Positions 19,170 through 59,236 of a DNA stretch of 64,000 nucleotides are shown piece after piece. The stretch comes from a virus (lineage: Duplodnaviria; Caudoviricetes), in the IMG/VR virus record IMGVR_UViG_3300032295_000548, positions 32,001-96,000 of that record; one strand, 5' to 3'. The notes under the pieces are model-generated. The model worked only from the letters and a program-made list of their open reading frames with translations. It was not told the origin of the DNA and did no database searches. The position numbers and the translations under genes were made by a program. How positions within the stretch are numbered: the first letter of the stretch is position 1; each line of letters begins with the position of its first letter.

Positions 19170-19475
19170 ATGGACACAAAAACTTTAATTAGCGAAGCTA
19201 AAGCCCGATTTAGCCACAACGCAGCCAAATCATATCTAAAGGAAAAATATGAAACTCGGTTGATAGTTGCCGAGCAAGGCGGGCTTTGGAGAGCAAATCT
19301 CCAAACAATCAATTTTTTAAACAATTCTCAATCAGATACTGTCATTCTTGTTGATAGTTTTGAGAATCCGGTACAAGTAAACCGTGCAGAATTACTAGCC
19401 AAACTCAATGAAACATATGAATCTGTTATGGGCGAATGGCTAACCGAATGGGCAGAACTAGAGAAGAAACGATGA
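19170..19475 (+). CDS. Hypothetical protein (possible fibre assembly chaperone)
   Basis: 101 aa, AGGAG RBS, ATGA overlap with the next gene. Confidence 0.6.
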   Translation: MDTKTLISEAKARFSHNAAKSYLKEKYETRLIVAEQGGLWRANLQTINFLNNSQSDTVILVDSFENPVQVNRAELLAKLNETYESVMGEWLTEWAELEKKR

Positions 19476-20281
19476 GTAGAGGAGCACTACTCTTTGCCTT
19501 CAACTCACCCAAATACAATTACTACGCAATGGCGGAGTATACCGCAAAGAGAATCAATCATTTTTTGGGCATGCCTGTAACCATAGTTACAGATAAATCC
19601 AGTATACCTAATAATCCATCTTACAAGTTTGACAATACTATTGTTGTTGAACCCGATAAGAATAACATTCGTGATTATATGGTTTGGATTAACAAGGGTA
19701 GATACCAAGCGTATGAACTTAGTCCATACGATGAAACCCTATTACTAGATACAGACTACATGGTTAACAGTGATAGTTTGTTGAAAACATTTGATATATG
19801 TGAAGATTTTTGCTGTCACGATACAACGTCATTCTTGATGCATCCCAAAGCACCTCAAGAAGTATTGAGCGCATATAGCTTCAAAACACTGTGGGCTACA
19901 GTAATTACATTTAAAAAGACACCTCGAGCAAAACAAATCTTTGAATGTCTAGAAATGGTTCAGAAAAACTATGAACACTATGCTAACATTCATAGTTTTA
20001 TTGCTGGCGTATATCGCAATGATTATGCATTGACACTGGCATTACGCATTGCTAATGGACACCTTATAGATCATAGTGATATTATCCCGTGGAATTTAGT
20101 TCACGTTGGTAAGAACACCTCAGTATATTCAGATACTGACAATGAATTCAACACAGAATATACAGTGATGTTTGATAACTGGCAACGAGGTAAGATTCGC
20201 AAAGAATATATTAGTCTCAAAGGTACAGATTTTCATGTGATGAACAAAGAAAACTTTATGGAGTTAATTAAAAATGGATAA
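19472..20281 (+). CDS. GT-A fold glycosyltransferase (GT8-like)
   Basis: ELSPYDETLLLDTDY (DxD) and YRNDYAL motifs. Start moved to ATG 19472 because of the ATGA overlap. Confidence 0.65.
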   Translation: MSRGALLFAFNSPKYNYYAMAEYTAKRINHFLGMPVTIVTDKSSIPNNPSYKFDNTIVVEPDKNNIRDYMVWINKGRYQAYELSPYDETLLLDTDYMVNSDSLLKTFDICEDFCCHDTTSFLMHPKAPQEVLSAYSFKTLWATVITFKKTPRAKQIFECLEMVQKNYEHYANIHSFIAGVYRNDYALTLALRIANGHLIDHSDIIPWNLVHVGKNTSVYSDTDNEFNTEYTVMFDNWQRGKIRKEYISLKGTDFHVMNKENFMELIKNG

Positions 20282-21077
20282 AGGGTTCGTTATTATTTCA
20301 CAAGATGGTGGAACTTTAGACACATATCAAAAATGTGCAGAAGCATTAGCAAAGAGCATAAAACGCACAATGCCAGATGCAAAAGTGTCTATCATCACTA
20401 ACAACAAAATTAAAAATACATCGCTGTATGACAAAATCATTCCATTGCCGTACGGTGACCAAGCACCTAAAAGCTATTGGAAACTAAACAACGACTGGCA
20501 AGTATATGATGCTAGTCCATATGAATACACTATAAAATTAGAAGCAGATATCTATCTTCCTCGTTCGATAGATCATTGGTGGGATGGATTGAAGCATCGT
20601 GATTTGGTAATATCTACAAAGATAAGAGATTTCAAACAGGACATTAGCCCATCACGTGTATATCGTAGATTCATTGATGACAACAAATTACCTGATATGT
20701 ATAACGCAATCACATACTTTAAGAAGTCTGATACTGCTAAACGGTTTTTTGAAATGGTTCGTTATGTATTTGAAAATTGGTCTGACATTAGAGCTACTTT
20801 GAAAGGTAGTCCATATGAAGAAGCAACCACTGATTGGGTATATTCATATGTAGCACATGTCATGGGTGTTGAAAATTGCACGTTGCCCGGATTTGACGAA
20901 ATGAGTATGGTACATATGAAGCGACTTATCAACAATCTCCCTACTGAAGATTGGACTGATGCCTTAGTGTATGAGATACTTCCACATACATTGCGTATCA
21001 ATTCTTGTCCACAGCTTTACCCTTTCCACTATCATATAAAGACTTTTTCTAATAAAATACTACAAGCCTATGACTGA
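20274..21077 (+). CDS. GT-A fold glycosyltransferase-like protein, paralog of the upstream gene
   Basis: ASPYEYTIKLEADI (ExD variant), AITYFKKS..AKRFFE, TDWVYS; motifs collinear with 19472. Confidence 0.6.
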   Translation: MDKGFVIISQDGGTLDTYQKCAEALAKSIKRTMPDAKVSIITNNKIKNTSLYDKIIPLPYGDQAPKSYWKLNNDWQVYDASPYEYTIKLEADIYLPRSIDHWWDGLKHRDLVISTKIRDFKQDISPSRVYRRFIDDNKLPDMYNAITYFKKSDTAKRFFEMVRYVFENWSDIRATLKGSPYEEATTDWVYSYVAHVMGVENCTLPGFDEMSMVHMKRLINNLPTEDWTDALVYEILPHTLRINSCPQLYPFHYHIKTFSNKILQAYD

Positions 21078-21423
21078 AATTAATCAAGATGATGAAATAT
21101 TAATTCTTTGGGAAGCACCAAAGATTGAGATACCTGAGTTCCGTTTGTACTATGATGAAGATACTGGTAGGGTTATTTGCTACTCCTGCGAAAAGCTAGA
21201 AGGTAAATACATTGTCATTGACTCACTAACTTATGCTCAAGCTAGACCAGACGTTCGAATTATTAATGGTAAGATTTCAACTGCAAGTAATCATGCAATT
21301 GTATCTAAATTAATGCCACATCCTACTAAAGGTCAGATATGTGAAGAGGAAGATATAAGCGTTATATCAGTCGAAGGTAATAACACTATCAGATGGAAGT
21401 TAAACACATATGAACTCAAGTAA
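21070..21423 (+). CDS. Hypothetical protein
   Basis: 117 aa, overlaps both neighbours. Confidence 0.6.
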   Translation: MTEINQDDEILILWEAPKIEIPEFRLYYDEDTGRVICYSCEKLEGKYIVIDSLTYAQARPDVRIINGKISTASNHAIVSKLMPHPTKGQICEEEDISVISVEGNNTIRWKLNTYELK

Positions 21424-22363
21424 TATTGTAGATGTTGCAGACTTAGACTGTATCTATCTCAGTTACGATGAACCGCAGAAAGAAGAATTCTGGCTAAAGA
21501 TTAAGAACATGGTGCCTTGGGCAAAGCGTGTCGATGGCGTCAAGGGTTCAGACGCCGCACACAAAGCCGCAGGTGAAGCAAGCGAGACAGAACGATTTAT
21601 TCTTATTGACGGGGATAACATGCCCGACGAATCTTTCTTCAATATGCAACTCGACTTTACAGGAAAAGATTCTACTTATCAATTGGCACAATTTCGTTGG
21701 AAGGCAGTAAATGCTATCAACGGACTACGTTACGGTAATGGTGGCATGAGTTCTTGGACAAAGAGTTATGTCCGTAACATGCAAACGCACGAAGCACAGA
21801 AAAGCGGCGACAGTTCACGTATTGCTGACTTCTGTTTAGACAGTAAAGACAACTTGTATTGGGCAATGTATGATTGCTATTCAACTACATATCCCAATCA
21901 TACTCCGTTTCAAGCATGGCGTGCAGGTTTTCGTGAGGGTGTCAAGATGGTTCTTGACAAAGGCGAGAAGCCTGATGCTACTGAGTTCAAAGAACGTGTA
22001 GCAAGTCGCAATCTAAATAACTTGACGATTTGGCAAAACGTTGGTGCCGATGTTGAGAACGGCATCTGGGCTATATATGGTGCTCGACTTGGAACATACA
22101 TGACAATGCTTACTGAGTGGGATTGTCATAATGTACAATGGTTTGATAACTATCCTGTACTATGGGAAGAACATGAATTCAGAGATCCAATAGTGCAATC
22201 AGAATTGCTTGGTGAGGCATTACATGACAAGTTGGGATTACCAATGTGTACACTAAGTGCCGAACAGTCAAAGTTCTTCAAACGTCACTATCAGTCTGAC
22301 TATCACAATCAAGGCCCATTAGTTACTGAGATGGAAGTCATTCGTAGAATCGAAGGATGGTAA
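21410..22363 (+). CDS. GT-A-like glycosyltransferase
   Basis: YLSYDEP, RVDGVKGSDAAHKAA, FILIDGD (DxD), AWRAGFREGVK; homologous to the C-terminal domain of the 49013 protein. Confidence 0.6.
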   Translation: MNSSNIVDVADLDCIYLSYDEPQKEEFWLKIKNMVPWAKRVDGVKGSDAAHKAAGEASETERFILIDGDNMPDESFFNMQLDFTGKDSTYQLAQFRWKAVNAINGLRYGNGGMSSWTKSYVRNMQTHEAQKSGDSSRIADFCLDSKDNLYWAMYDCYSTTYPNHTPFQAWRAGFREGVKMVLDKGEKPDATEFKERVASRNLNNLTIWQNVGADVENGIWAIYGARLGTYMTMLTEWDCHNVQWFDNYPVLWEEHEFRDPIVQSELLGEALHDKLGLPMCTLSAEQSKFFKRHYQSDYHNQGPLVTEMEVIRRIEGW

Positions 22364-23772
22364 TGAGCGAAAGCCACGAACAAAAACGAATCAAAGAGAT
22401 TAGGATCAAAGTCGAAAACGAAGTTGGTCCTACGTTCTGCCTTGCAAAATGGCATCACGTAACTATGTACTTGCAATCAGGAGAGACACATAGTTGCTAT
22501 CACCCTCAACCTCATAAGATTCCCTTAGAAGAATTATATGACAATCCTTCTGCGTTGCATAATACACAGCAGAAGAAAGAAGAACGTAAACTAATGCTCG
22601 ACGGTGGCAAGCCTACCGGCTGTCAGTACTGCTGGAATATTGAAGCAATGGGTCCTGATTATATCAGCGACCGACACATTCGTAACGCAAGTATCTTTAC
22701 TGAAGAACGATATGAACAAACCGCAAAGGGTCCGTGGAATCAAAACATCAACCCCGAGTACATCGAAATCAACTTCGGTAATGAGTGTAACTTCAAGTGT
22801 GGCTACTGCCACCCTAAGTATAGCACAAGCTTCTACAAAGAGATTGAACAGAACGGTCCGGTTACTAACGTAAAGAATCATCGCTGTGATATCGATTGGA
22901 TGAAGTTATATCAACGTGAAGATGATAACCCATATGTTGACGCATTTTGGGAGTGGTGGCCTGAGATGCGTAAGACATTGAATATCATGCGTGTCACTGG
23001 TGGCGAACCTACACTACACAAGAGTACATGGACATTGCTTGAAAAGATTGAAGAAGATCCTATGCCATGGTTAGAGTTGAATATCAACAGTAACTTGGGG
23101 ACTAAGCCTATTCTTATTGAGCGTCTTGCTGAGAAAGTAAAGAAACTCACAGATGATGGTAAAATCAAAAACTTCAAGTTGTTTACTAGCTTGGATACAT
23201 GGGGTGAACGTGCTGAGTATATTCGTACAGGTCTTGACTTAGAGTTGTGGGAAAAGAACTTCCACACATATCTTAAAGGCACTGACAGCCCAATCACATT
23301 TATGATTACGTTCAACATCTTTAGTGTAACTACGTTTAAGAGTTTCCTAGAGAAGTTTATTGAATGGCGCAAGATATATGGATGGTATGATGACCCAGTC
23401 AATCCGCAACATCGTGTTCGTTTTGATACACCATACTTGCGTGACCCGATTCAGTATGACATGAACATTCTTCCCAAAGAAGAATTCATGCCTTACATGT
23501 ATGAAGCATTGAAGTACATGGAAGAAAATACTGATGATAAACGCAGTGACGCCTTTAGCAGTATCGAATATGAAAAGTTCAAGCGTGTAGTAGATTACAT
23601 GGCTGAAACTGTTTATCCTGAAGAAAAACTAATCGAAGGTCGCAGAGACTTCTATAATTGGTTCAATGAATTAGACGAGCGCCGAGAAGCAGACATGCTA
23701 TCAGTGTTCCCTGAGATGCTGGGCTTCTACAGACTGTGCCAAGAAACAAATCAACTGAACCCATTTAAATGA
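22363..23772 (+). CDS. Radical SAM protein with N-terminal twitch-like Cys domain
   Basis: CNFKCGYC, TGGEP; N-terminal FCLAKW..SC..CQYC. Likely start is ATG 22363 (TAATG overlap). Confidence 0.85.
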   Translation: MSESHEQKRIKEIRIKVENEVGPTFCLAKWHHVTMYLQSGETHSCYHPQPHKIPLEELYDNPSALHNTQQKKEERKLMLDGGKPTGCQYCWNIEAMGPDYISDRHIRNASIFTEERYEQTAKGPWNQNINPEYIEINFGNECNFKCGYCHPKYSTSFYKEIEQNGPVTNVKNHRCDIDWMKLYQREDDNPYVDAFWEWWPEMRKTLNIMRVTGGEPTLHKSTWTLLEKIEEDPMPWLELNINSNLGTKPILIERLAEKVKKLTDDGKIKNFKLFTSLDTWGERAEYIRTGLDLELWEKNFHTYLKGTDSPITFMITFNIFSVTTFKSFLEKFIEWRKIYGWYDDPVNPQHRVRFDTPYLRDPIQYDMNILPKEEFMPYMYEALKYMEENTDDKRSDAFSSIEYEKFKRVVDYMAETVYPEEKLIEGRRDFYNWFNELDERREADMLSVFPEMLGFYRLCQETNQLNPFK

Positions 23773-24998
23773 ACAAAGACCACCTACTAAACGACAGTAA
23801 AACATTTTGCATGTTCCCTTGGCTTCACTTAAATGTGACACCTAAGGGCGACATATACCCTTGTTGTTCAAATGACTACACAAAGCCCTTTGGTAACACA
23901 AAAGAGATTACACTACACAAAGCATTCAACAGTACTCAAATGAAAGAGTTGCGTTTGGATATGTTGAATGAACGCAAGAATGAAATCTGTAAGTTCTGTT
24001 ATCAGCATGAAGAAGCAGGCCCACACAGCTTTCGTAACTATAGCAAAGAACACTTTGGTAAGTACTTTGATGACGTTGTGCCCACTACCCAAGAAGATGG
24101 AACAGTAGATGACTTTAAGATGCGGTACTTTGACATTCGCTTCAGTAACATTTGCAACTTCAAGTGCAGAACATGCGGATCAGAATTCTCTAGTCAATGG
24201 GGACTAGAAATGAATAAGAATTATGATAGCAAGCATCCTATTCTTATACATGCTGATGACGATAAGGGTAACTTATTAGAAGAAGTATTGGAACACGTTG
24301 AGCACATCGACCTAGCGTACTTTGCGGGCGGAGAGCCCTTGATTACAGAAGAACACTATGTTATACTAGAAGAAATGATTCGTAAGGGTCGCACTGATGT
24401 AACACTACGCTATAATACAAATGCTAGCAATATCAAGTACAAGAACCATGATGTACTTGATCTTTGGAAGCACTTTAAAAAGGTTGAATTAAGTTGTTCT
24501 ATAGATCACTATGGTGAACGTGCTGAATTATTGCGTAGTGGAACAGATTGGGGTAAAGTTGAGAGTAACCTATTATTGTTTAGAGACTTAGACTACGTTA
24601 GTTTCCAAATGAATACCGTGTTCTCAATCTTTAATTATTTGACAATTGGTGAATTCTATCAGTATCTCAAAGACAAGAATATTATACGTAGAGAAGATTG
24701 GTATCACAGTTTGTATCTAGCAGTACATCCGTTGTATTACAGTGCAAAGAGTTTACCAAAATCATTAAAGCCATTAGCGCAAGAAAAAGCATTGAAATGG
24801 GCTGATGCTAATGACAATGATGGAACTAGCCTATCACGTTTGGTACGTGATGCAGTGAACTTTGCGAATGATGGCGATGGTTGGAGTGATGTGCATAAGC
24901 AGTTTTTGGGTCACACTAAATCATTAGACAGAATACGTGAGGAAAGTTTCTGGAAAACATTCCCCGAGTTAAATAAATTATCTGAATTATTGGAGTAA
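23769..24998 (+). CDS. Radical SAM protein with N-terminal twitch domain
   Basis: FCMFPW...PCC...CKFC, CNFKCRTC, AGGEP. Confidence 0.88.
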   Translation: MNKDHLLNDSKTFCMFPWLHLNVTPKGDIYPCCSNDYTKPFGNTKEITLHKAFNSTQMKELRLDMLNERKNEICKFCYQHEEAGPHSFRNYSKEHFGKYFDDVVPTTQEDGTVDDFKMRYFDIRFSNICNFKCRTCGSEFSSQWGLEMNKNYDSKHPILIHADDDKGNLLEEVLEHVEHIDLAYFAGGEPLITEEHYVILEEMIRKGRTDVTLRYNTNASNIKYKNHDVLDLWKHFKKVELSCSIDHYGERAELLRSGTDWGKVESNLLLFRDLDYVSFQMNTVFSIFNYLTIGEFYQYLKDKNIIRREDWYHSLYLAVHPLYYSAKSLPKSLKPLAQEKALKWADANDNDGTSLSRLVRDAVNFANDGDGWSDVHKQFLGHTKSLDRIREESFWKTFPELNKLSELLE

Positions 24999-25001
24999 TC
25001 G

Positions 25002-26273
25002 ATGGATAAAGTAACAGTAGAGAACCTGGTTAAACACGGAAAGCATTTCTGTGTATTGCCCTGGGTTCATTTTCACAGCTGGCCAGATGGTAGAGTTATG
25101 CCATGCTGTGTCGCAGACAGCAACATGCCTGTAGCCGACTTGAAAGACGGTGAGTCTATCATCAACATGATGAACAGCACAGACTACAAAAAGCTAAGAA
25201 CAGCAATGATGAATGACGAGCCGGTAGAAGCTTGCAAGCGTTGCTATGACTTAGAGTTAATGGGTACATGGACAATGCGTCAAAGTCATAACAAGCGCAA
25301 AGGTCTAGAGTACGTCAAATACATAGCAGAAAACACAATGGAAGACGGAAGCCTCATTGACTTTGAAATGAAGTACATGGACTTGCGTTTCAGTAGTATC
25401 TGTAACATGAAATGTCGTAGTTGTGGCCCAGGCTGTTCAAGTCAATGGGCACAAGAGTTTGTCGACCGTGTTGGTATGGACAACTACGAGAAGTATTTTA
25501 AGACAACTAAGATTGTCATTAACTCAGCAGAAGAAATGGGATTCATGGCTAAACTAAAGCCATATCTCAAAGACGTTACAGAAGTTTACTTTGCAGGTGG
25601 AGAGATTATTATCACACCTGAGCATTATGAATGCTTAGACTATTGGATCGAAAACGGATTGACGGATCAAGTAGAACTGACTTATACAACAAACTTTAGT
25701 AGCTTGAAGTATAAGAAAGACGTTGACTTGATTGCGTATTGGAAGAAATTCCCTAAACTGAAGATTTGGGCATCACTTGACGCACACGGTGATGTAGCTG
25801 AATGTATCAGAAAGGGTACAGATTGGGATCGTATTGTTAGTAATATCAAGTTAGTAAAAGAGCAAGTACCGCATGCTGAATTTCAGATTACTCCAACCAT
25901 CAGTATTTGGAATGTGTTTACTTTCCCTGACTTCTTTGACTACATGGTCAATGAGGGATTCATTGATACTAAATCTAGCCCACGCTTTAACTTAGCTACC
26001 AACCCCTGGTATGCTAACATTATGATCCTACCCGCTAGTGTAAAACGCAGACTCGCTGAATTGTATCGTGTCTACCAAAATCGTTACAAAGATAACATTG
26101 ATATCTATAACGGATTCAAGATGATTATCTATAACTTGACAGTTGGTGATGAGAACAAAGGTGGCATCCAAGAGTTTATCAAGTTCAATGAAGAACTAGA
26201 TGACTTTAGAGATGAGAAATTAGAAGAAATTATTCCAGAACTTAAAGAGGTGTTTGATTGGGCAAGAAACTAA
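25002..26273 (+). CDS. Radical SAM protein with N-terminal twitch domain
   Basis: FCVLPW...PCC...CKRC, CNMKCRSC, AGGE. Confidence 0.88.
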   Translation: MDKVTVENLVKHGKHFCVLPWVHFHSWPDGRVMPCCVADSNMPVADLKDGESIINMMNSTDYKKLRTAMMNDEPVEACKRCYDLELMGTWTMRQSHNKRKGLEYVKYIAENTMEDGSLIDFEMKYMDLRFSSICNMKCRSCGPGCSSQWAQEFVDRVGMDNYEKYFKTTKIVINSAEEMGFMAKLKPYLKDVTEVYFAGGEIIITPEHYECLDYWIENGLTDQVELTYTTNFSSLKYKKDVDLIAYWKKFPKLKIWASLDAHGDVAECIRKGTDWDRIVSNIKLVKEQVPHAEFQITPTISIWNVFTFPDFFDYMVNEGFIDTKSSPRFNLATNPWYANIMILPASVKRRLAELYRVYQNRYKDNIDIYNGFKMIIYNLTVGDENKGGIQEFIKFNEELDDFRDEKLEEIIPELKEVFDWARN

Positions 26274-28577: not shown

Positions 28578-28578
28578 T

Positions 28579-30674: not shown

Positions 30675-30754
30675 AAAAGAAATACATCGTGGGTATACAT
30701 AAAACATATAACTGGATAGTCAAACAAATTGAGTCAGGCAATAATGATCTATGA
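30671..30754 (+). pseudogene. 27-codon chimeric remnant: start of the SGNH gene fused to the end of the epimerase gene
   Basis: MKKKYIVG|IH|KTYNWIVKQIESGNNDL*. Compare MSKKKYIVGLG (31823) and KTYNWISEQISRGQKDFE* (epimerase C-terminus). Confidence 0.75.
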
Positions 30755-31821: not shown

Positions 31822-31822
31822 C

Positions 31823-38542: not shown

Positions 38543-38569
38543 AATCTTTTTAGGCATGATCCTATCAAA

Positions 38570-38575
38570 TAAATA
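38570..38575 (+). promoter_or_regulatory. Putative late promoter TAAATA
   Basis: In the 55-bp gap before the GAGG RBS of 38598. Confidence 0.4.
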
Positions 38576-41735: not shown

Positions 41736-41746
41736 TGTCCAATTAC

Positions 41747-41776
41747 ATTGTACTACCTGTATAAGGGTAGTACAAT
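41747..41776. repeat. 11-bp perfect inverted repeat in the intergenic gap
   Basis: ATTGTACTACC-tgtataag-GGTAGTACAAT, with no U-tract. Confidence 0.7.
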
Positions 41777-41797
41777 AGTAGAAAATAGGAGTACATT

Positions 41798-45622: not shown

Positions 45623-45624
45623 GA

Positions 45625-47400: not shown

Positions 47401-47402
47401 GT

Positions 47403-47410
47403 TATAAATA
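47403..47410 (+). promoter_or_regulatory. Late promoter, exact T4-type TATAAATA
   Basis: Intergenic, 22 bp before a small ORF. Confidence 0.55.
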
Positions 47411-47432
47411 CTTAGGATTTAAAGGGCAAACT

Positions 47433-47531
47433 ATGTTTATTATCAGATTTTTCAAAAACTTAATCAAAGAATACAAATACCGCAAGCGCATCAAAGAACT
47501 ACGTAAACGTGATCCATTTATCTATAAGTGA
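47433..47531 (+). CDS. 32-aa basic peptide upstream of the carbamoyltransferase (not in ORF track)
   Basis: MFIIRFFKNLIKEYKYRKRIKELRKRDPFIYK*; fills the gap and ends 2 nt before the next ATG. Confidence 0.65.
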   Translation: MFIIRFFKNLIKEYKYRKRIKELRKRDPFIYK

Positions 47532-47533
47532 TT

Positions 47534-52000: not shown

Positions 52001-55000
52001 AGCCCTCCATATATCTATCACTTTGCTACTCAGTGGGCACTGACAGGTGGTCCTGTGTATACAGTACAAGGTGCTAATGAAACAAAGTATTTGGAAGAAC
52101 CATGTGCAGTTGCTTTGGAGAATAAAGAAAACTGGGAAATACCTAAAGATATCGATGAAGCTTTATTTGACTTCTCATGGCATCCATACGTGGAAGATCA
52201 GCCTTATGTATATGTGTTTGGTACGCAACATCAAAAGACAGGCGGACCTAAGTACGTAACACCAGGTGTTATCCCTTCAAGCCCAATCAAATACATTGAC
52301 ACACGTATTCTTAAAGCAGTAAAGAAGCCTAGTAAGAAAAACTTTGCAATACTGAATAACTACAAGATTAAAGATTTTGATTGGTCATGGCATCCAGACG
52401 AAACCGACGAGCCATACATCTATGTGTTTGGTAACAATCAATACTCGGCTGAGATTATGCCTACGATTGAGTACGTTGTGCCGGGCGCAAAGCAGATCAA
52501 ATACGTCAGTGATGTTATAGCAACGTTAGATGTTGACATGACTAACTGGGAAATTCCCGATAACATTGATGCTGAAGGCTTTGACTTTAGTTGGAAACCT
52601 AATCCTAAAGACCCGCCTTTCATATATCAATTTGGTACTCAATGGCAAAAGACAGGCGGCCCTCGCTATGTTGTGCCAGGTGCTGACGAAGTAAAGTATG
52701 TAACTACTCAACAAGTTAAATCATTGTCATCAATGACCAATTGGACTATTCCAACGCATATTGATACAACTGGATTTGATTTTAGTTGGCACCCGGATGA
52801 CACAAGCCCTCCTTATATCTATCACTTTGCCACTCAATGGGCACTGACAGGTGGACCTGTATACACTGTTGAGGGTGCAACGGAAACAAAATACTTAGAA
52901 GAACCTAGTGCAATTGCATTAGTAAATAAAGAAAATTGGGAAATACCTTCTGACATTGATGATAGTGAGTTTGATTTTTCTTGGCATCCATATGTAGAAG
53001 ATCAGCCTTATGTGTATGTCTTTGGTACTCAATGGCAAAAGACTGGTGGACCTAAGTACATAACACCTGGTGTTATTCCTTCAAGTCCTATCAAGTATAT
53101 TGATACACGTATTCTTAAGGCTAAGAAATTGGCTAATAAAAAGAACTTTGCCATACTCAATAATTATAAGATTAAAGATTTTGATTGGTCATGGCATCCA
53201 GACGAAACTGATGAGCCATATATCTATGTGTTCGGTAACAATCAATACTCGGCTGAGATTATGCCAACTATTGAATATACAGTTCCGGGTGCAAAACAAA
53301 TCAAGTACGTACATGATGTAGTAGCAACGTTAGATGTTGACATGTCAAATTGGGAAGTGCCTAAGAATGTAGATTCTACTGGATTTGACTTCAGTTGGAA
53401 ACCTAACCCTAAAGATCCTGCATATATCTATGAGTTTGGTACTCAGTGGCAAAAGACAGGTGGCCCTCGCTATGTTGTGCCTGACGCAGAAGAAGTTAAG
53501 TACGTATCTACACAACAAGTCAAAGTACTTGCTAATCATGACAATTGGACTATACCTCCTAACATCGATGTTAGTGATTTTGATTTTAGCTGGCACCCTG
53601 ATGCTACAAGTCCACCATATATCTATCACTTTGCCACTCAGTGGGCATTGAGCGGTGGCCCGATCTACAAGATGGATAAGGCTATTGCTACTAAGTATAT
53701 GGATCAGCCTGTTGCTAAAGCATTGCCTAATAAAACTAATTGGGAGATACCGGATGATATTGATGCAGTAGATTTTGATTTCTCATGGCATCCGTATGTT
53801 GAAGATGATCCGTTTGTTTATCAGTTCGGTACTCAATGGCAAAAGACAGGTGGACCTCGTTATGTCACACCGGGTGCAAAGAGAAGTTTACCAGTCAAGT
53901 ACATTGACACTCGTATTCTTAAATCTAAAAAGTTACCTAACAAAGATAAGTTTACTGTATTAAACAATTTAACAATTGCATCGTTTGATTGGTCATGGCA
54001 TCCAGATGAGACTGACGGTGAATTTGTATATGTGTTTGGCAACACACAGTATCCTGCTGAAGTTATGCCTACGATTGAATATCGTTCAAGTCCCTACGCA
54101 GAAAAGATAAAGTATATCAACGATTTTAAGGCTGTACTAGCAACGGATCTTAAGGATTGGGACATACCTACTAACATTGATGTTAGTGAGTTTGATTTTA
54201 GTTGGAAACCAAATCCAAATGACCCTCCATTCATTTATCAGTTCGGTACTCAATGGCAAAAGACAGGAGGCCCTCGTTATAAAGTAGAAGGCGCAACCGA
54301 AGTCAAATATGTTGAAGGGTCTAAAGCAAAAGCAATTGCTAGTAAAAAACAATGGATAGTACCGACAACTATTGATAGTGCAAACTTTGACTACAGTTGG
54401 CATCCAGACGAAACTGAAGAACTTTACGTTTATCAATTTGGTACTCAATGGCAAAAGACAGGTGGCCCTCGTTATATAACGTCTGGATCAACTAGTGATA
54501 CTCCTGTAAAATACTGTGATGATGTTAAAGCAAGACAATTGCCTAACAAAAAGAATTTTAACTGTTTAGTAGAGCATGAGATAAAAGACTTTGACTATTC
54601 ATGGCATCCAGATGATACTGATAAGCCATACATTTATGTGTTTGGTAATAAACAGTATTCTGCTGAAATTATGCCTACAATAGAATATAAAGTGGCAGGG
54701 GCAGTTCAGGTCAAGTACGTACATGATGTTGTAGCTACACTGAACAACAACAAAAAAAACTGGGAGATACCTAAAGATATCACTACTGAGAGTTTTGACT
54801 TTAGCTGGTTGCCTCACCCTAAGGATCCTCCTTATGTATATCAATTTGGTACACAACATCAAAAGACAGGTGGACCTCGTTATGTAGTTCCTACAGCTAC
54901 TGATATAAAATACATCGATGGCTTGGTTGCTAAACGCAAACAAGCTATGACCAACTGGGTAGTACCTGAAGGAGTTGATGTATCTAATTTTGATTTTAGT

Positions 55001-57154
55001 TGGCATCCTGATGAACTAGCACCACCGTACATTTATCAGTTCGGTACAGTTGCTGACGACAAAGACGGTCCTAAATATGTTCCATCTATCAATAACGGTG
55101 AAGTAGTATTCAAGCAAAGAATAAGCAAACCAATACAAGATGACATAATCGAAGAAGTTTTCATTGGACAATACTATATTGAGACTACACTAGAAGATTT
55201 GGTTAACAAACACCCTGATGAAATTTTCTGGGCATTGAATTCTAGTATTGATTACACAAACTTTGACTTCACTTGGAGGCCTGAGATTATTCATATTGCA
55301 TGGGAATCTTCATACGTTAATGTATTTGGTTCTCCTGACAGTCCATTGACACAAACATACTTTGTCAATGCAAAATCATACTTGGCTGGAAATAAAGACT
55401 TTAAGTTTGTTGAGAACGTAAAATTAAGTGAAGAATACCTATCAACTCTTTTTGTTAAGCCTGACATGTTTTTTGTTGACAGAGGAAACAGTGAATCATC
55501 TGCAAGATTTGAAATGCTGAAAACTAAGTTTGGAAACATTCAAAAGACACGATATCTAAACAGTTGGGTCGATACCATCAACCGTTGTATCAATCGTAGT
55601 ACAACTGAATTATGCTGGATACTGAACAGTGAATTAGATTACTCTGATTTTGACTTTAACTATTATCCTAACCCTTGGCAGATGAAGATGGTTCATGTGT
55701 TTGGTACTCAATGGAGTCATTGGGGAACTACGTTCATGGTTAATCGTGAAGCATTCTCTACTGACACCAAGTACATTAAGATTATAGAACACTTGAGTAA
55801 TCTTAACTTTGTCAAGACTCGTACTGCAAAGGCAACAAATGTCTTGTATGACGTATACTACATAGATCATGGCAACGCTACTAACTTGCCAAACGCAAAT
55901 GTTGTACCATATGATACTGATTATCTAACTACATTTAAGAACATACTATCTAAGTTGCCTGAAAAGAAAGAGCATTACATTTGGATAGCAAGTACAGTGT
56001 GTGATTATGACAGTTTTGATTTCACGTACATTTGTGATCCATTCGCACGTGAACAATTGCATGTGTTCCCAAGTAGCAGTCAGAAGTTTGGTGATACATT
56101 TTTAGTGAATGTGAACAAGTTACGTGAGTTAGTTAGTGATATGGAGTCATTGAAAGACTATGACAAAATTAACTTCAACCAACATCAGCGTACTAAACGT
56201 TTGACCCCTCCTACAATTGTTACAGAGTTTGATTCTCATGTTGCTACTGTAATGCAAGATTTTGATTTCCCCTACGCTGTATTTGTCACTGAGGATAACA
56301 AAGATATAGTTGCAGTTGAAGAAGAACCAATGAGTCTATGGGATCAAGAATCTAAAAACATTCTTGTTACCAGTACTGGTGGCACACGTATCATCGTTCC
56401 AAAAGAAGCAAAGCAATATGTTGAGACACAGTTGTATGACTATCCGTACATCAAAACTGCGCCTCGTTTAGCTAAGAGTAATCCATTAGACATTGTTTAC
56501 TTGAGCAATGGTGAAAGTTGTGCAGATGAAAATTATGAACATCTATTGAAAGCGACAAAGGGTCTTCCTAACAAAATCGTTCGTGTAGATGGTGTTAATG
56601 GTCGTGTTGAAGCATATCATGCCGCGGCAAAAGCAAGTAACACGCCTTGGATGTTCACTGTGTTTGCGAAATTGAAAGTCAACACTAAGTTTGACTTTAA
56701 CTGGCAACCAGATAGACTGCAAATTCCTAAGCACTATATGTTCTTAGCAAAGAACCCTGTCAATGGATTAATTTATGGTCACCAAGGTATGATTGCGTAC
56801 AACAAAGAAATGACATTGAATAATCCAGGTTACGGTCTAGACTTTACATTAGATAGTCCTCACGAAACTATTGAATTGTTATCAGGTATAGCAACATACA
56901 ACACAGACGAATGGTCAACATGGCGTACTGCATTCCGTGAAGTTATCAAGTTGAAGAAAGAAAATTCTGAAATTAGCTTGAAGCGTTTAGAAGCATGGAT
57001 GACTAAAGCTGAAGGTGATTTTGCAGAATATTCGATAGACGGTGCTATAGATGGTATCGCATACTACAATGAAGTAGAAGGCAAAACAGATAAACTACGC
57101 TTGAGTTACGAATGGGCGTGGTTGCGTGAAAGATTTGACAGGAAGCACAAGTGA
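49013..57154 (+). CDS. Giant 2713-aa repeat protein with degenerate GT-A-like terminal domains
   Basis: ~29 repeats of ~65-70 aa (W.IP..ID...FDFSW.P....PYIY.FG.Q...TGGP.Y...GA.E.KY). The C-terminal DIVYLSNGE..RVDGVNG...AYHAAA...TWRTAFREVIK is homologous to 21410. Confidence 0.8.
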   Translation: MLRDVFYFGNKPNVHPREQHATSLTDARRKASTEHFWIINEFCDYTNFDWDFDFEFLPDADVWAEEHNNVWPSYHQKDSGTWLCPKKLSDVIVYRADVDSLKRKNSINDNWKLLDNIDVTKWDFSWHPDPSDPPYIYKWGSKYAPVELKSCIEYHAPDATQIKYMNTTVELLPNWDCIVEVQKVNYNHWDMSWRPDPLDPPFIYVWGNKYIDGRLRSTLEYHVPGATEKKYMNELVPVLPEWDRWVLIHDIDKTSFDFSWRPDPREPDFIYVFGNEQYEGGVMPTIEYRMPDATERKYLHDMKARLSPHPEKFEHLEKADNIDYSWVPDPTAPPYIYVWGNQWNKPEDKISIQYVVEGATEYKYMEERSKRKPCMDNWEVPDDVDTTGFDFSWEPSPADPAYIYEFGTQWQKTGGPRYVVEGATEIKYVSTMKVTKLADKSKFAILGNLKIANFDYSWHPDSTEEPYIYVFGNNFYPGEIMPTIEYAMSGATKIKYVENAVATLGIDKINWEVPNNVDASSVDFSWKPNPKDPPYIYQYGTQHQKSGGPRYVVPEATEVKYVDVKAKALPQQDKFTVLDGIVVDEFDYSWHPDDTEEAYIYQFGNNQYPAEIMPTVEYAMPGATQIKYVHEVVAKLGVDMTNWTTPDNIDATGFDYSWKPNPKDPAYIYEFGTQWQKTGGPRYLVEGADEVKYVTTQSVKVLPTTDNWTIPTNCDVTGFDFSWHPDATSPPYIYHFATQWALTGGPVYTMDGATEIKYVEHPSAVALPNRDNWEIPKHIDSDAFDFSWHPYVEDQPYVYIFGTQHQKTGGPKYITPGVIPTSPVKYIDTRIIRAIRKPSKKNFAVLNNYKIKDFDWSWHPDETDEPYIYVFGNTQYPAEIMPTIEYVVPGATQIKYVTDVVATLDIDMANWEVSNNTDVSSFDFSWKPNPKDPPFIYQFGTQHQKTGGPRYVVADADEVKYVTTQQAVALPTTENWTVPNYVDTSGFDFSWHPDDTSPPYIYHFATQWALTGGPVYTVQGANETKYLEEPCAVALENKENWEIPKDIDEALFDFSWHPYVEDQPYVYVFGTQHQKTGGPKYVTPGVIPSSPIKYIDTRILKAVKKPSKKNFAILNNYKIKDFDWSWHPDETDEPYIYVFGNNQYSAEIMPTIEYVVPGAKQIKYVSDVIATLDVDMTNWEIPDNIDAEGFDFSWKPNPKDPPFIYQFGTQWQKTGGPRYVVPGADEVKYVTTQQVKSLSSMTNWTIPTHIDTTGFDFSWHPDDTSPPYIYHFATQWALTGGPVYTVEGATETKYLEEPSAIALVNKENWEIPSDIDDSEFDFSWHPYVEDQPYVYVFGTQWQKTGGPKYITPGVIPSSPIKYIDTRILKAKKLANKKNFAILNNYKIKDFDWSWHPDETDEPYIYVFGNNQYSAEIMPTIEYTVPGAKQIKYVHDVVATLDVDMSNWEVPKNVDSTGFDFSWKPNPKDPAYIYEFGTQWQKTGGPRYVVPDAEEVKYVSTQQVKVLANHDNWTIPPNIDVSDFDFSWHPDATSPPYIYHFATQWALSGGPIYKMDKAIATKYMDQPVAKALPNKTNWEIPDDIDAVDFDFSWHPYVEDDPFVYQFGTQWQKTGGPRYVTPGAKRSLPVKYIDTRILKSKKLPNKDKFTVLNNLTIASFDWSWHPDETDGEFVYVFGNTQYPAEVMPTIEYRSSPYAEKIKYINDFKAVLATDLKDWDIPTNIDVSEFDFSWKPNPNDPPFIYQFGTQWQKTGGPRYKVEGATEVKYVEGSKAKAIASKKQWIVPTTIDSANFDYSWHPDETEELYVYQFGTQWQKTGGPRYITSGSTSDTPVKYCDDVKARQLPNKKNFNCLVEHEIKDFDYSWHPDDTDKPYIYVFGNKQYSAEIMPTIEYKVAGAVQVKYVHDVVATLNNNKKNWEIPKDITTESFDFSWLPHPKDPPYVYQFGTQHQKTGGPRYVVPTATDIKYIDGLVAKRKQAMTNWVVPEGVDVSNFDFSWHPDELAPPYIYQFGTVADDKDGPKYVPSINNGEVVFKQRISKPIQDDIIEEVFIGQYYIETTLEDLVNKHPDEIFWALNSSIDYTNFDFTWRPEIIHIAWESSYVNVFGSPDSPLTQTYFVNAKSYLAGNKDFKFVENVKLSEEYLSTLFVKPDMFFVDRGNSESSARFEMLKTKFGNIQKTRYLNSWVDTINRCINRSTTELCWILNSELDYSDFDFNYYPNPWQMKMVHVFGTQWSHWGTTFMVNREAFSTDTKYIKIIEHLSNLNFVKTRTAKATNVLYDVYYIDHGNATNLPNANVVPYDTDYLTTFKNILSKLPEKKEHYIWIASTVCDYDSFDFTYICDPFAREQLHVFPSSSQKFGDTFLVNVNKLRELVSDMESLKDYDKINFNQHQRTKRLTPPTIVTEFDSHVATVMQDFDFPYAVFVTEDNKDIVAVEEEPMSLWDQESKNILVTSTGGTRIIVPKEAKQYVETQLYDYPYIKTAPRLAKSNPLDIVYLSNGESCADENYEHLLKATKGLPNKIVRVDGVNGRVEAYHAAAKASNTPWMFTVFAKLKVNTKFDFNWQPDRLQIPKHYMFLAKNPVNGLIYGHQGMIAYNKEMTLNNPGYGLDFTLDSPHETIELLSGIATYNTDEWSTWRTAFREVIKLKKENSEISLKRLEAWMTKAEGDFAEYSIDGAIDGIAYYNEVEGKTDKLRLSYEWAWLRERFDRKHK
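50767..54040 (+). repeat. Higher-order tandem repeat, exact 804-bp (268-aa, 4-module) period
   Basis: The equivalent FD(W/Y)SWHPD-coding sequence occurs at 50767, 51571, 52375, 53179 and 53983. Confidence 0.85.
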
Positions 57155-58206
57155 AATATATTACACATAACCAATGGTCAGGTGACCATAAGTTTGTTGA
57201 GTTCTACAATCGTGTAATCAGTGAAGATTTTGACAAGATCATAATCTTCTGTCAGAACGAATGGGAATGGTATAACCACGAACCCGAACATTGGCAGTTA
57301 CTACAAGATTATTGTAAGAAAATCAACAAGACAATTCATATAGTTGTTGGTGCCGCAGAAAAAGATTTCCCGGTACACATTGATAACGTTGACGTTTCAT
57401 ATTGGCCTACTTCATGGTTTGGTAGAACGTACATAAATTCAATGAGGATGAACAAAAGTCTATTCATAGATCCAAATGTTACCGTTGATTATGAACATCA
57501 CTTCTTTAACTTTAATCACAGACCAAAATCACATAGATGCAAAGTTATAGACCAACTAGCAAAGCATGATTTATTCAAGCATGGTGCTGTATCAATACAT
57601 GGTACAGAAGTTTATTCAGGAACAACGCATGAGGGATGGGAAATATTTCCATGGAAGCATTTTAAATACAAACCCATGTCATTGGATACTGCTGAATTCA
57701 CCAAAGATGCACACGGGCAGATGTTCGTAGTTACAGATATACATAGAAAGTCATTTTGTCAACTAGTTAGTGAAACAACAGATAGGTCATACTTTATAAG
57801 TGAAAAAACTATAATGCCCTTGTGTGCAGGTAAACCGTTTTTAGTAGCATCAAGACAAGGCTTTCACCAATTGCTGAAAGACATGGGGTTTGAGTTATAC
57901 GATGAAATCTTTGATTACTCATTTGATTCTATTGTTGATGAAGATAGACGTTACGAAATGCTAGTAGATAATTACAAAAGATTGTGTGAAATACCATTGA
58001 ATGAACTACCGGCATTAACAAAACAAATACATGAAAAGTTATTGCACAATAAGAATAGAGTAAAAGAGATTGTATATGAGCGAGGCAACTATCCGATGTT
58101 GTTGCAAGAGGTATTGAAGCATTACAAGACTACCAAAGAAGAAGTAGATCACTTGTTTTGTTCGTTGTATGAAGAAGAGGAAATGTTTGCATATCATGAG
58201 TGGTAA
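57151..58206 (+). CDS. GT10-like glycosyltransferase
   Basis: NHRP..HR, LVSETT..FISEKT.MP...KPFL, GFELYDEIFDYSFD. Confidence 0.55.
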   Translation: MKYITHNQWSGDHKFVEFYNRVISEDFDKIIIFCQNEWEWYNHEPEHWQLLQDYCKKINKTIHIVVGAAEKDFPVHIDNVDVSYWPTSWFGRTYINSMRMNKSLFIDPNVTVDYEHHFFNFNHRPKSHRCKVIDQLAKHDLFKHGAVSIHGTEVYSGTTHEGWEIFPWKHFKYKPMSLDTAEFTKDAHGQMFVVTDIHRKSFCQLVSETTDRSYFISEKTIMPLCAGKPFLVASRQGFHQLLKDMGFELYDEIFDYSFDSIVDEDRRYEMLVDNYKRLCEIPLNELPALTKQIHEKLLHNKNRVKEIVYERGNYPMLLQEVLKHYKTTKEEVDHLFCSLYEEEEMFAYHEW

Positions 58207-59236
58207 AAATTTAAACTACATTGGTCATAACCAATGGAATGGCCTTAACTTTCAAAATTTTTATGAGAAAGTGATTAACGGCAACTATGACAAAGTAATA
58301 TTATTTTCACAGAATGAGTGGGCACATCACCATCACAATCCTGAATATTTTCCTTTGCTACAAGAGCATATGAAAAGAATAGGTAAGCCCCTACATATCA
58401 TTACTTCGGCACATAAACATTTGTACCCAGTTGAACTAGAAAATACTCAAGTACATTGGTATGATACATATTGGATGTGCAAAACGTATGGACAATTATT
58501 ACACGTTAGTAAAGGTAATAAGATATCAATTGATCCCTACGAAACGGTAGATTACAAATATCATTATCTTTCTATGAACCACAGGCCCCATCTGCATCGT
58601 TGTTTGTTAATTGATTTGTTGGCTAAACACGATTTGATGAAGTATGGTGCTATATCATTACACAATGCACCAGTACCTGAACTGTATCAATGGAAATATT
58701 TTGATTACAAACCACTAATATTAGATCAACAATACTCCACTGAAAAAAATTATAACCTTGTACCTGACCAATATTATGAATCGTTCGTACAACTGATAAG
58801 TGAAGCTTCAGGTGATACTATAATGATGTCTGAAAAAACAGCAATACCGTTATTGTTAGGTAAACCTTTCTTAGTTGCTAGTCAGATGCATTTCCATAAG
58901 TTCTTGAAAGGACTAGGATTTGAGCTATATGATGAAATATTTGACTACAGTTTTGATGACGAACCGAACGAAGAAAAAAGATATGAAATGCTTTTGGAAA
59001 ACTTCAAGAGATTGTGTCAAATACCGTTAAACGAACTAACTCAATTACAACAACGCATAGCTAACAAAGTATTGTTTAATAAGAAACATGCCAAATCATT
59101 GGTATTTGACACTACAACATGCCCAGAACTAGCTATGGAAGTTATCAATTACTACAAAGATACCGGAACTATCATAGACAAGCACTTGATAGATGACTAC
59201 GAAAACTGTATAATGTACAAAGACCATGAGATTTGA
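58196..59236 (+). CDS. GT10-like glycosyltransferase, close paralog of 57151
   Basis: Shares YI.HNQW.G, FY..VI...DK.I.F.QNEW, NHRP.HRC and SEKT..P...KPFLVAS. Likely start is ATG 58196. Confidence 0.55.
   Translation: MSGKNLNYIGHNQWNGLNFQNFYEKVINGNYDKVILFSQNEWAHHHHNPEYFPLLQEHMKRIGKPLHIITSAHKHLYPVELENTQVHWYDTYWMCKTYGQLLHVSKGNKISIDPYETVDYKYHYLSMNHRPHLHRCLLIDLLAKHDLMKYGAISLHNAPVPELYQWKYFDYKPLILDQQYSTEKNYNLVPDQYYESFVQLISEASGDTIMMSEKTAIPLLLGKPFLVASQMHFHKFLKGLGFELYDEIFDYSFDDEPNEEKRYEMLLENFKRLCQIPLNELTQLQQRIANKVLFNKKHAKSLVFDTTTCPELAMEVINYYKDTGTIIDKHLIDDYENCIMYKDHEI

Follow-up and report, generated by a model that had tools for sequence, protein, structure and literature searches.

This study was concerned with a block of genes predicted to build and decorate a glycan in a 64,000-nucleotide stretch of virus DNA (IMG/VR record IMGVR_UViG_3300032295_000548). 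The stretch is called the window here and corresponds to bases 32001-96000 of a 139,446-bp linear viral contig. The gene block, called the island, consists of 26 open reading frames (ORFs) of at least 100 aa, labelled A to Z, which are all on the + strand and span 19436-59236 (~40 kb). The ORFs overlap at 17 of the 25 junctions between them, and no other real genes interrupt the island. This agrees with an earlier first-pass annotation, which had reported ~27 co-oriented, mostly overlapping genes right after the tail-fibre genes. The island ORFs were searched against Pfam, NCBIfam and PHROGs, and the results were sharpened by sequence and profile searches against the PDB. The products are given below, where SAM stands for S-adenosylmethionine, PLP for pyridoxal phosphate, AF2 for AlphaFold2, and GT-B family for a domain that occurs ten times in the island.

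A, 19436-20281, + strand: GT8-like GT-A transferase, paralogue of B.
B, 20274-21077, + strand: GT8-like GT-A transferase (phrog_1903), paralogue of A; its Atlas neighbours are nucleotide-diphospho-sugar transferase and GT8 clusters.
C, 21070-21423, + strand: 117-aa ORF for which no family match and no detectable homologue was found.
D, 21410-22363, + strand: GT-A-fold transferase with a DxD motif (AF2 model, pLDDT 85, pTM 0.86).
E, 22357-23772, + strand: radical SAM protein with an N-terminal twitch domain (NF033640, E 3.8e-94).
F, 23769-24998, + strand: radical SAM protein with an N-terminal twitch/SPASM domain (NF033640, E 8.6e-111; SPASM and Radical_SAM matches).
G, 25002-26273, + strand: paralogue of F, 32% identical to it (SPASM, E 4e-7).
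H, 26258-27250, + strand: radical SAM protein (Radical_SAM, E 4e-6, slightly under the Pfam cut-off).
I, 27237-28577, + strand: N-terminal extension and a GT-B family domain.
J, 28519-29559, + strand: GDP-mannose 3,5-epimerase (Pfam Epimerase, 2e-45); the likely true start is 28579.
K, 29556-30674, + strand: GT-B family transferase, variable cassette (GC 0.31).
L, 30751-31821, + strand: GT-B family transferase, variable cassette.
M, 31823-32698, + strand: SGNH-like esterase or acyltransferase with conserved Ser, Gly, Asn and His blocks.
N, 32691-34622, + strand: B12-binding radical SAM protein (B12-binding, 4e-11; Radical_SAM, 3e-13).
O, 34619-36658, + strand: two tandem GT-B family domains.
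P, 36627-37448, + strand: SGNH-like protein, homologue of M (invariant S19, G55, N58, D210 and H212).
Q, 37445-38542, + strand: divergent GT-B family domain.
R, 38598-41735, + strand: three-domain fusion of an NDP-sugar 6-dehydrogenase, a GT-B family domain and a HemK/RsmD-type methyltransferase.
S, 41798-44068, + strand: B12-binding radical SAM protein (Pfam-type library match; 96-97% identity in relatives).
T, 44065-44667, + strand: mini DegT-like PLP protein of 200 aa (DegT match, 5e-16).
U, 44645-45622, + strand: StrB1-type amidinotransferase (E 1.2e-63 against inosamine-phosphate amidinotransferase).
V, 45625-47400, + strand: weak cupin/Asp-Arg-hydroxylase-like N-terminus and at least the C-terminal half of a GT-B family domain.
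W, 47528-49012, + strand: NodU/TobZ-type carbamoyltransferase (Carbam_trans_C, 6e-48; Carbam_trans_N, 6e-37).
X, 49013-57154, + strand: 2713-aa repeat protein with ~29 Trp/Tyr/Pro-rich repeats of ~68 aa, followed by fuller GT-A-like units without a DxD motif.
Y, 57151-58206, + strand: GT-B family transferase.
Z, 58169-59236, + strand: GT-B family transferase, the modelled member (AF2, pLDDT 75.7, pTM 0.78).

The sequences give good support for the prediction that all 26 island products are soluble and that they form a cytoplasmic pathway for building and tailoring a glycan. The maximum Kyte-Doolittle hydropathy over 19 residues was below 1.6 in every island ORF, and the highest value in the window, 1.54, belongs to a porin with a signal peptide. 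The hydropathy scan placed a membrane segment in none of the 26 ORFs. The enzymes that start or export a lipid-linked glycan were sought with the profiles PF02397 (WbaP-type initiating transferases), PF00953 (WecA-type initiating transferases), PF01061 (ABC-2 exporter permeases) and PF01943 (Wzx flippases). The contig gave no match to any of them, nor did two relatives of 330 kb (93% complete) and 244 kb (71% complete), and the same profiles were matched in 10 to 14 of 14 control genomes. The first-pass annotation had described a cytoplasmic glycan pathway fused to the tail module, with no flippase and no obvious membrane anchors. Each of these statements was upheld: membrane segments are absent, the initiator and exporter profiles are unmatched (the Wzx profile in the contig and both relatives, with positive controls), and the island lies behind the baseplate and fibre genes in all contigs that contain both regions.

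The genes that precede the island in the window, which are needed for this last point, are as follows.

1-16122, + strand: 3' part of a 6494-aa giant virion protein, beside the baseplate genes and outside the island.
16291-16911, + strand: conserved jumbo-phage protein phrog_11259 (PHROG match, E 2e-69), outside the island.
16944-18161, + strand: fib1, tail-fibre-like (N-terminal PHROG 'virion structural protein' match, 4e-11; weak C-terminal Peptidase_G2 chaperone match).
18171-19121, + strand: fib2, fibre-like, which travels with the core module A-B-D-E.
19170-19475, + strand: 101-aa ORF with homologues between fib2 and gene A in 5 loci.

The contig is assigned from its genes to an uncultured jumbo phage of the Rak2/Atu_ph07/RsoM2USA type, of which it would be a fragment, because the genes upstream of the island have homologues directly behind the wedge genes of the baseplate in Agrobacterium phage Atu_ph07, Sinorhizobium phage Phosso, Rak2-type phages and Ralstonia phage RsoM2USA. 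No terminal repeat was found in the contig, and CheckV rated its completeness at ~40%. The full genome of this phage type is estimated at ~350 kb, since contigs of 85-99 kb with a compact form of the island were rated 23-28% complete by CheckV. The phage is from a lake. The ORF for the 6494-aa protein begins at contig position 28638, and its product is homologous to giant structural proteins of Atu_ph07, Phosso and RsoM2USA (ORF361). In RsoM2USA, ORF361, ORF359 and ORF356 were detected in virions by mass spectrometry (PMC8504454). The phrog_11259 protein has 45-52% identity to its counterparts in 93 Rak2/Atu_ph07-type phages and 65-90% identity to those in related contigs. The N- and C-terminal ends of fib1 are both homologous to the gene at the same position in Phosso and Atu_ph07. 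Homologues of fib2 lie directly 5' of the A-B-D-E genes in distant contigs (28-34% identity), and RsoM2USA ORF355 is another.

The window proteins were mapped on 79 viral loci, and two island architectures were found. The long form is collinear with the island from E through Z and is followed by the same AAA ATPase. The compact form (~15 kb) begins with fib1, fib2, the 101-aa ORF and then A, B, D and E, continues on the opposite strand with V, U, P and T, and ends with O, R, a D-like gene, H and F. Dozens of IMG/VR jumbo-phage contigs have a collinear island. In this contig, in four related contigs and in the cultured RsoM2USA, it stands directly 3' of the baseplate and fibre genes and in the same orientation, and wherever a contig contains both the phrog_11259 marker and the module, the module follows the marker at a distance of a few kb. 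The link to the tail module that had been proposed from one sequence is well supported by synteny across related jumbo phages. In simple scans, neither promoters nor terminators were in excess within the island or in the interval from the fibre genes to gene A. Strong, near-consensus promoters of the sigma-70-like kind (11-12 of 12 matches) start only at the island end, at 59186, 59233, 61032, 61520 and 61986, where they precede a transfer-messenger RNA (tmRNA) gene, the porin gene and several small genes. For these reasons, the signals are weakly consistent with one long late transcript shared by the fibre genes and the island, and they suggest that, at the island end, a long late operon gives way to genes that the host polymerase transcribes.

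In Phosso (L001, 22635-30784) and Atu_ph07 (L002, 23433-30171), the corresponding place behind the fibre gene is taken by a different cluster of ~8 kb. The Phosso cluster is annotated with three radical SAM genes and an oxidoreductase, and the Atu_ph07 genes are all annotated as hypothetical. A single ancestral cluster for the island and these two loci was rejected, as no homology was detected by tblastn for both phages or by hhalign for three Phosso genes. The site behind the fibre gene looks like a hotspot for radical SAM cargo.

No glycosyltransferase was named among the island ORFs by Pfam, NCBIfam or PHROGs, so the transferase assignments rest on folds, profiles and motifs. The three GT-A-like enzymes of the first-pass annotation are A and B, which are GT8-like by profile, and D, which has a GT-A fold by its model and a conserved DxD. 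The profile of the A/B family (A3) matches glycogenin-1 and -2 (E 1.3e-4 to 1.4e-3; profile positions 6/14-103) in an alignment that covers the DxD region but only the N-terminal half, with D92 invariant and D90 near-invariant. The Atlas leads for A and B are PF01501 and PF03407. With Foldseek, the model of D matched RmlT (1.3e-4) and the PBCV-1 A64R capsid glycosyltransferase (6.5e-4), and with VIA it reached Z scores of up to 9.6 over ~142 residues. Across 20 sequences, the DxD residues D67 and D69 show conservation of at least 90%, and a PDB profile search with the gene D sequence gave no match. The families of D and of A/B were also considered as one sequence family, which was rejected since they are unrelated by profile comparison.

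The GT-B family is a paralogous domain of ~330 aa, and all-vs-all BLAST placed ten copies of it in I, K, L, O (two copies), Q, the middle of R, V, Y and Z; the copy in V is clear only in its C-terminal half. The residues E212, E222, K223, P233, F234, D263 and N304 (Z numbering) are kept in all ten copies. A PDB profile search with the family sequence gave no match, and a GT-B fold is supported by the model of Z. The Foldseek list of this model against the PDB consists almost entirely of GT-B enzymes, with the cytoplasmic protein glycosyltransferases EarP, GtfC and SdgB as weak top matches (E ~1e-3). With VIA, 47 chains had Z scores of at least 8, and almost all of these are GT-B enzymes aligned over 220-280 residues. 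The top VIA match is T4 beta-glucosyltransferase (Z 11.6, root mean square deviation 4.0 over 256 residues, 6% identity). Close BFVD matches are to unnamed proteins from uncultured phages and from one Mimivirus-like virus, and the weaker matches are giant-virus transferases, including Mimivirus L138 and proteins labelled GT10.

The first-pass annotation had called these domains GT10-like. The ten-copy family stood and its GT-B fold is supported by the model, but profile searches gave no support for membership in GT10: PF00852 gave no match at E <=5 for three family members and none at E <=10 across the whole contig. The named Atlas clusters nearest to the family all carry PF00852, with lead-level scores of 0.78-0.79, and the E-x9-EK motif of the family is one that we take to resemble the FEN...TEK motif of GT10. 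In addition, a GDP-mannose 3,5-epimerase (GME) would supply GDP-L-galactose, the 6-hydroxy analogue of GDP-L-fucose. However, the GT10 enzymes FUT9, FUT11, FUT13 and H. pylori FucT reach VIA Z scores of 8.6-8.9 against the Z model and are not top-ranked, and their scores are equalled or exceeded by those of T4 beta-glucosyltransferase and many GT4-type enzymes. Thus, GT10-like is a reasonable label for the nearest family of the domain. The ten GT-B copies, the three GT-A enzymes A, B and D, and the DxD-less end of X give 14 transferase domains in total.

The sugar-donor and tailoring enzymes were recovered largely as first proposed. J was compared with solved GMEs and scored 337 bits (E 8e-100), against 97 bits for the next short-chain dehydrogenase/reductase (SDR) family. 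The NDP-sugar dehydrogenase is the N-terminus of R (TIGR03026, 9e-42), and the methyltransferase is its C-terminus, of HemK/RsmD type by library match. The six radical SAM enzymes are the four consecutive products E, F, G and H, together with N and S; E and F belong to N_Twi_rSAM, and N and S are of the B12-binding type. Gene E has 97% identity in a closest relative (L045) and 38% in RsoM2USA, and gene H has 94-96% identity in the closest relatives. U aligns with StrB1 over residues 8-324, including the FHC motif with the catalytic Cys in the C-terminal part, and W matches both halves of its family. The two SGNH proteins are supported by their motifs, by weak GDSL matches for M (the best PDB profile matches of M are all GDSL proteins, E 0.06-0.3) and by the homology of M and P (hhalign probability 96.7%); a PDB profile search with gene P gave no match.

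Two of the proposed tailoring enzymes were sustained only in part. The aminotransferase is T, which has a DegT-like match with the SF..K motif of the PLP lysine but is a mini version of 200 aa. The alignment covers its residues 4-60 and 99-171, opposite chain positions 35-88 and 181-256. Some 50 core residues are absent, as is the C-terminal domain, a loss of around half the fold, whereas the full DegT/DnrJ/EryC1 fold-type I PLP domain has ~370 aa. T is not a broken gene, because a length of 194-200 aa is kept in related jumbo phages and the gene at the matching cassette position in cyanophage S-SCSM2R, ORF305 (588 nt), is similarly short. From its sequence, T may need a partner or may have a different activity. 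The oxygenase corresponds to a weak cupin match in V (E 1e-3), but this lies below the Pfam cut-off and a PDB profile search with the N-terminus of V gave no match.

X is the largest product of the island and has no Pfam match. The core motif of its repeats is FDFSW.P....PYIY.FG, and the repeats are nearly cysteine-free (0.5%). Residues 2492-2653 resemble D, but VFAK replaces the VDGD of D and the DxD is therefore absent; the C-terminal domain is probably inactive or metal-independent. At least 333 homologous clusters of X were found, with lengths of 1499-3330 aa, and the C-terminal 674 aa are 61-94% identical among the 120 homologues listed, which indicates that the repeat number varies while the C-terminal end is held constant. 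Tandem Repeats Finder detected no repeats in the DNA of X, since divergence has left the repeats recognisable only at the protein level. X appears to be a giant protein built by amplification of a fragment of a transferase fold. An X-type protein was absent from 50,697 GenBank phages.

The GT-B family was also absent from the same GenBank phages. It was confirmed in 460 stretches in IMG/VR and in 14 stretches in 185,579 species genomes, all of which were metagenome-assembled genomes (MAGs), so that the family is almost purely viral. One distant homologue (7707-8681) lies among five radical SAM genes in a Bdellovibrionia MAG (L090, 5494-12932, on a 936-kb contig), and the pairing of the GT-B family with radical SAM genes thus extends beyond phages.

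Conservation differs strongly between genes of the island. The closest relatives, L045 and L031, were used to compare identities, along with L032 for T and U, as listed here.

E, F, G, H, N and S: 94-98% identity.
M: 92-93% identity.
I: 90% identity.
R: 82-83% identity.
J: 81% identity.
O: 66-67% identity.
P: 61-64% identity.
Q: 47-48% identity.
K: paralogue-level matches only.
L: absent from L045, 63% identity in L031.
T: 94% identity with L031 and 72% with L032.
U: 58% identity with L031 and 92% with L032.

The transferase cassettes are thus 32-67% identical in the closest relatives, compared with 94-98% for the flanking radical SAM genes, and the variable genes have a GC content of 0.31-0.35 compared with 0.37-0.43 for the conserved genes. 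A conserved tailoring frame with exchanged low-GC transferase cassettes is the pattern of exposed glycan loci such as O-antigen clusters. By this analogy, the conserved framework and the swapped cassettes suggest selection for structural variety in an exposed glycan.

The first-pass annotation implied that the island was new, and this part did not hold, because islands of this kind are already described in aquatic myophages as the host recognition cluster (HRC). The HRC is a variable island of 34-45 kb in the structural region of pelagimyophages and cyanomyophages (Zaragoza-Solas et al. 2020; PMC7029224). It contains tail fibres, GT8 as its commonest glycosyltransferase, UDP-glucose 6-dehydrogenase and radical SAM cassettes (PMC7029224). 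The present island likewise adjoins tail-fibre genes within the structural region (it starts at 19436, and the fibre genes lie at 16944-19121), has GT8-like transferases, sugar-nucleotide enzymes and radical SAM cassettes, and is hypervariable among related phages, with compact and long forms. By gene content it is a jumbo-phage version of the HRC that is larger and belongs to a different phage lineage. The HRC phages are T4-like, with genomes of ~150-250 kb and the island between VrlC and gp14, whereas the backbone here is that of Rak2/Atu_ph07/RsoM2USA-type phages, with the fibre genes on one side of the island and a block of tmRNA, porin and AAA genes on the other. Also, the ten-copy GT-B family, X, GME and the amidino/carbamoyl set are present here and are not described for the HRC. 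Beyond the descriptions of the HRC (PMC7029224) and of cyanophage S-SCSM2R (PMC12801897), nothing was found in the literature on this combination of enzymes in phages. The 'Moraphages' (PMC12619734) were considered as relatives and set aside as a different lineage.

Two cultured phages hold parts of the island. RsoM2USA (MG752970; PMC8504454) carries at ORF355-ORF348 a fibre-like gene, A, B, D, E and a second D-like gene with 29-41% identity, and this core lies 3' of the giant protein and of other virion proteins verified by mass spectrometry. However, the core is only ~6 kb, its genes are annotated as hypothetical, and the GT-B family, X and the amidino/carbamoyl tailoring genes are absent. 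The same phage has an SDR sugar-epimerase-like gene, ORF358 (L082, 13585-14562), with 28% identity to J, between the annotated tail sheath and other virion genes. Cyanophage S-SCSM2R (PQ898602; PMC12801897) shares at ORF302-310 a mini DegT gene ('AHBA synthase', 588 nt), radical SAM, glycosyltransferase (GT), 2-oxoglutarate (2OG) oxygenase and amidinotransferase genes. The order of its cassette is T, radical SAM, GT, 2OG oxygenase, U and GT2, and its amidinotransferase is 62% identical to U. Unlike the island, this cassette is located among auxiliary genes at a great distance from the tail genes, and the GT-B family is missing from it. It was read as genes for 'antibiotic synthesis' and the cell wall (PMC12801897).

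Taken together, the locus is best explained as an HRC-type island of soluble enzymes that build a decorated glycan whose acceptor is most likely a protein of the phage particle; we regard this account, taken as a whole, as standing at about even chances. In the proposed pathway, J would turn GDP-mannose of the host into GDP-L-galactose or GDP-L-gulose, and R would make a uronic acid donor from an NDP-hexose. The 14 transferase domains would assemble an oligo- or polysaccharide. The six radical SAM enzymes would edit the chain or its precursors, probably by C-methylation, epimerisation, or dehydration or oxidation, and further editing would consist of amination (T), guanidinylation (U), carbamoylation (W), N- or O-methylation (R), and acylation or de-acylation (M, P). 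The product would be a partly cationic, heavily decorated heteroglycan with L-galactose or L-gulose and uronic acid. It would be attached in the cytoplasm, before assembly, to a protein of the late operon, such as the fibre proteins encoded next to the island or the 6494-aa giant protein. X is probably a pseudo-transferase and may act as a scaffold or as a glycan-binding partner.

The acceptor is the more tentative part, and a virion or fibre protein is proposed for it with somewhat less than even confidence. This target is favoured because of the constant linkage to the fibre gene, the absence of a membrane step, viral precedents, and weak fold leads to protein glycosyltransferases. The glycans on the capsid and tail tube of mycobacteriophages are a precedent for virion glycosylation (Freeman et al. 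2023, as cited in PMC12619734). These glycans, PBCV-1 A64R and the Mimivirus fibril cluster resemble the island in having soluble, virus-encoded transferases and sugar-nucleotide enzymes beside structural genes, but the likeness is at fold level only, and the present island, for which virion glycosylation is a proposal, is much larger and is rich in radical SAM genes. The leads towards a protein acceptor are self-glycosylating glycogenin for the GT8-like profile, EarP/GtfC/SdgB, PBCV-1 A64R and Mimivirus L138, all of which are weak.

Several points weigh against a glycan on virion proteins. The fold matches to protein glycosyltransferases are poor (E ~1e-3), and the top VIA match of the GT-B model is a DNA glucosyltransferase. 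Cytosolic transferases for lipopolysaccharide (LPS) and capsule also lack membrane segments, and the lipid-carrier and export steps could be borrowed from the host. SPASM/twitch enzymes often act on peptides. In addition, the T-U cassette in S-SCSM2R is remote from structural genes, and the full island system is absent from the 50,697 GenBank phages. Lastly, the authors of the HRC study favour modification of the host O-chain (PMC7029224). A glycan on virion proteins, as the first-pass annotation had it, is kept as the best single guess; the published reading of such islands is modification of the host O-chain.

Host envelope remodelling is accordingly the first alternative to be considered. 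In this case, the soluble enzymes would build a new or altered O-chain, capsule or other envelope glycan on a lipid-carrier primer of the host, and a host exporter would carry it out. The infected cell would thereby acquire a different surface, for example to block superinfection or to stop progeny from re-adsorbing to debris. LPS and capsule pathways typically include GT8, UDP-glucose 6-dehydrogenase and GME, the low-GC transferase cassettes form a mosaic like that of O-antigen loci, and a phage porin gene 0.9 kb 3' of the island indicates that envelope genes are carried nearby. It is also the published reading for the HRC (PMC7029224) and for the 'cell wall' genes of the cyanophage (PMC12801897). 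However, neither an initiating phosphoglycosyl transferase nor a flippase, an ABC-2 exporter or a membrane segment was found, including in the 93%-complete relative, and specific recognition by the export machinery of the host would be required. The island also lies inside the late structural operon, and its core travels with the fibre gene across distant phages. Envelope remodelling is judged unlikely, with a real share of the probability left to it. A product that leaves the cell envelope untouched, namely a free aminoglycoside-like or oligosaccharide metabolite (a guanidino- or carbamoyl-sugar) acting on the host, on competitors or on rival phages, has only a small chance of being correct. 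The StrB1-type amidinotransferase, the TobZ/NodU-type carbamoyltransferase, the B12-binding (GenK-type) and twitch (BtrN-type) radical SAM enzymes and the DegT-like protein do parallel aminoglycoside pathways, and the parallels are with the biosynthesis of streptomycin, tobramycin and gentamicin. However, Pfam and NCBIfam revealed no cyclitol synthase or other scaffold synthase among the 26 ORFs, the 14 transferase domains far exceed the need of a small molecule, and no exporter or resistance gene was seen. The setting is that of phage structural genes, and a free metabolite would leave the linkage to the fibre gene unexplained.

Of the two remaining alternatives, one concerns the chemistry and the other the target. 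The radical SAM part might mature a peptide or protein, by cross-linking or epimerising residues of a fibre protein or of X, with glycosylation as a second, independent modification. The SPASM/twitch domains, weak secondary matches to DynA (2e-4) and WgkB (4e-3), and the 29 aromatic-rich repeats of X would suit such a role. However, the GT-B family sits among five radical SAM genes in the bacterial MAG with no obvious precursor peptide, the repeats of X derive from a folded GT-A sub-domain with hardly any cysteine, and the sugar-nucleotide enzymes are interleaved with the radical SAM genes. This explanation is very improbable. DNA hypermodification, in which the transferases would glycosylate modified phage bases against restriction, receives the lowest probability of all. 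T4 beta-glucosyltransferase is the top fold match, T4 alpha-glucosyltransferase and the phage HY126 glycosyltransferase are also listed, and the phage DNA glycosyltransferases are, like the GT-B family, small soluble GT-B enzymes. Phages are known to place up to three sugars on cytosine derivatives, and arabinosyl-5-hydroxycytosine clusters are described (PMC13326640). However, known phage DNA-glycosylation pathways need a ThyA-family hydroxymethylase or hydroxylase, and those mapped in Straboviridae lie in the DNA-metabolism region (PMC13326640). The only ThyA-family gene on the contig (99624-100517; L084, 1486-2394) is a canonical thymidylate synthase (Pfam 353 bits; best PDB matches all ThyA, E ~1e-79), which lies ~3.6 kb past the right end of the window and ~8.4 kb past the island end. 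A ThyA-family gene is absent from the 93%-complete relative that carries the module. DNA glycosylation is disfavoured because the ThyA of the contig is canonical, the near-complete relative lacks a ThyA-family gene and the known clusters depend on one. A Tet/JBP scan of the contig was blank, but the control genomes were blank too. Also, the island has no linked ThyA-family hydroxylase, dCTPase or kinase and lies in a structural rather than a replication module, 14 transferase domains and bulky cationic tailoring are unfit for a packaged genome, and the T4 match is at fold level only (6% identity).

Returning to the glycan on virion proteins, a more specific form of it can be put forward, although it is decidedly unlikely as a whole. 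A large clade of freshwater jumbo phages may coat its fibres or the 6494-aa baseplate protein with a cationic heteroglycan that carries guanidino and carbamoyl groups and is made by the virus-specific GT10-like family. The donors would be GDP-L-galactose or GDP-L-gulose, the radical SAM enzymes would edit the glycan, and assembly would take place in the cytoplasm. The giant pseudo-glycosyltransferase X would organise the glycan, and its variable repeat number (1499-3330 aa) would determine how long the coat is or how it is spaced. The glycan, and not the protein alone, would then be the variable surface for host recognition or protection.

If virions do carry the product, phage particles in lakes and oceans would carry sugar coats that are self-made and fast-evolving. 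This would change the view of host range, adsorption and particle stability in very abundant large phages, and genes now labelled as 'LPS' auxiliary metabolic genes would be reassigned. Irrespective of the target, the island is rich in unexplored enzymes. Among them are a viral GT-B family without a name, of which at least 460 copies are confirmed in IMG/VR, radical SAM enzymes of the N-terminal-twitch and B12 types whose substrates are probably sugars, a DegT-like protein of minimal size, and X. The core module is present in the cultured phage RsoM2USA, and the question of the acceptor is thus open to direct experiment.

The right flank of the island holds three further features. A permuted (two-piece) tmRNA gene lies directly 3' of the island at 59567-59971. 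It was not called by ARAGORN and was found by Rfam (RF04321, 104 bits, E 4e-21). The Betaproteobacteria tmRNA model scored 79.7 bits, slightly below its gathering score of 84, and this near-threshold score hints at a betaproteobacterial host. A phage gene for a Gram-negative porin (60104-60985; Porin_4, E 2e-18) follows 0.9 kb 3' of the island. It encodes an N-terminal segment like a signal peptide, and a sigma-70-like promoter and a terminator (60064-60083) lie before it. Lastly, a MoxR/AAA-type ATPase gene at 62708-63808 has 80-86% identity across many related contigs and is the constant right neighbour of the W-X-Z end.

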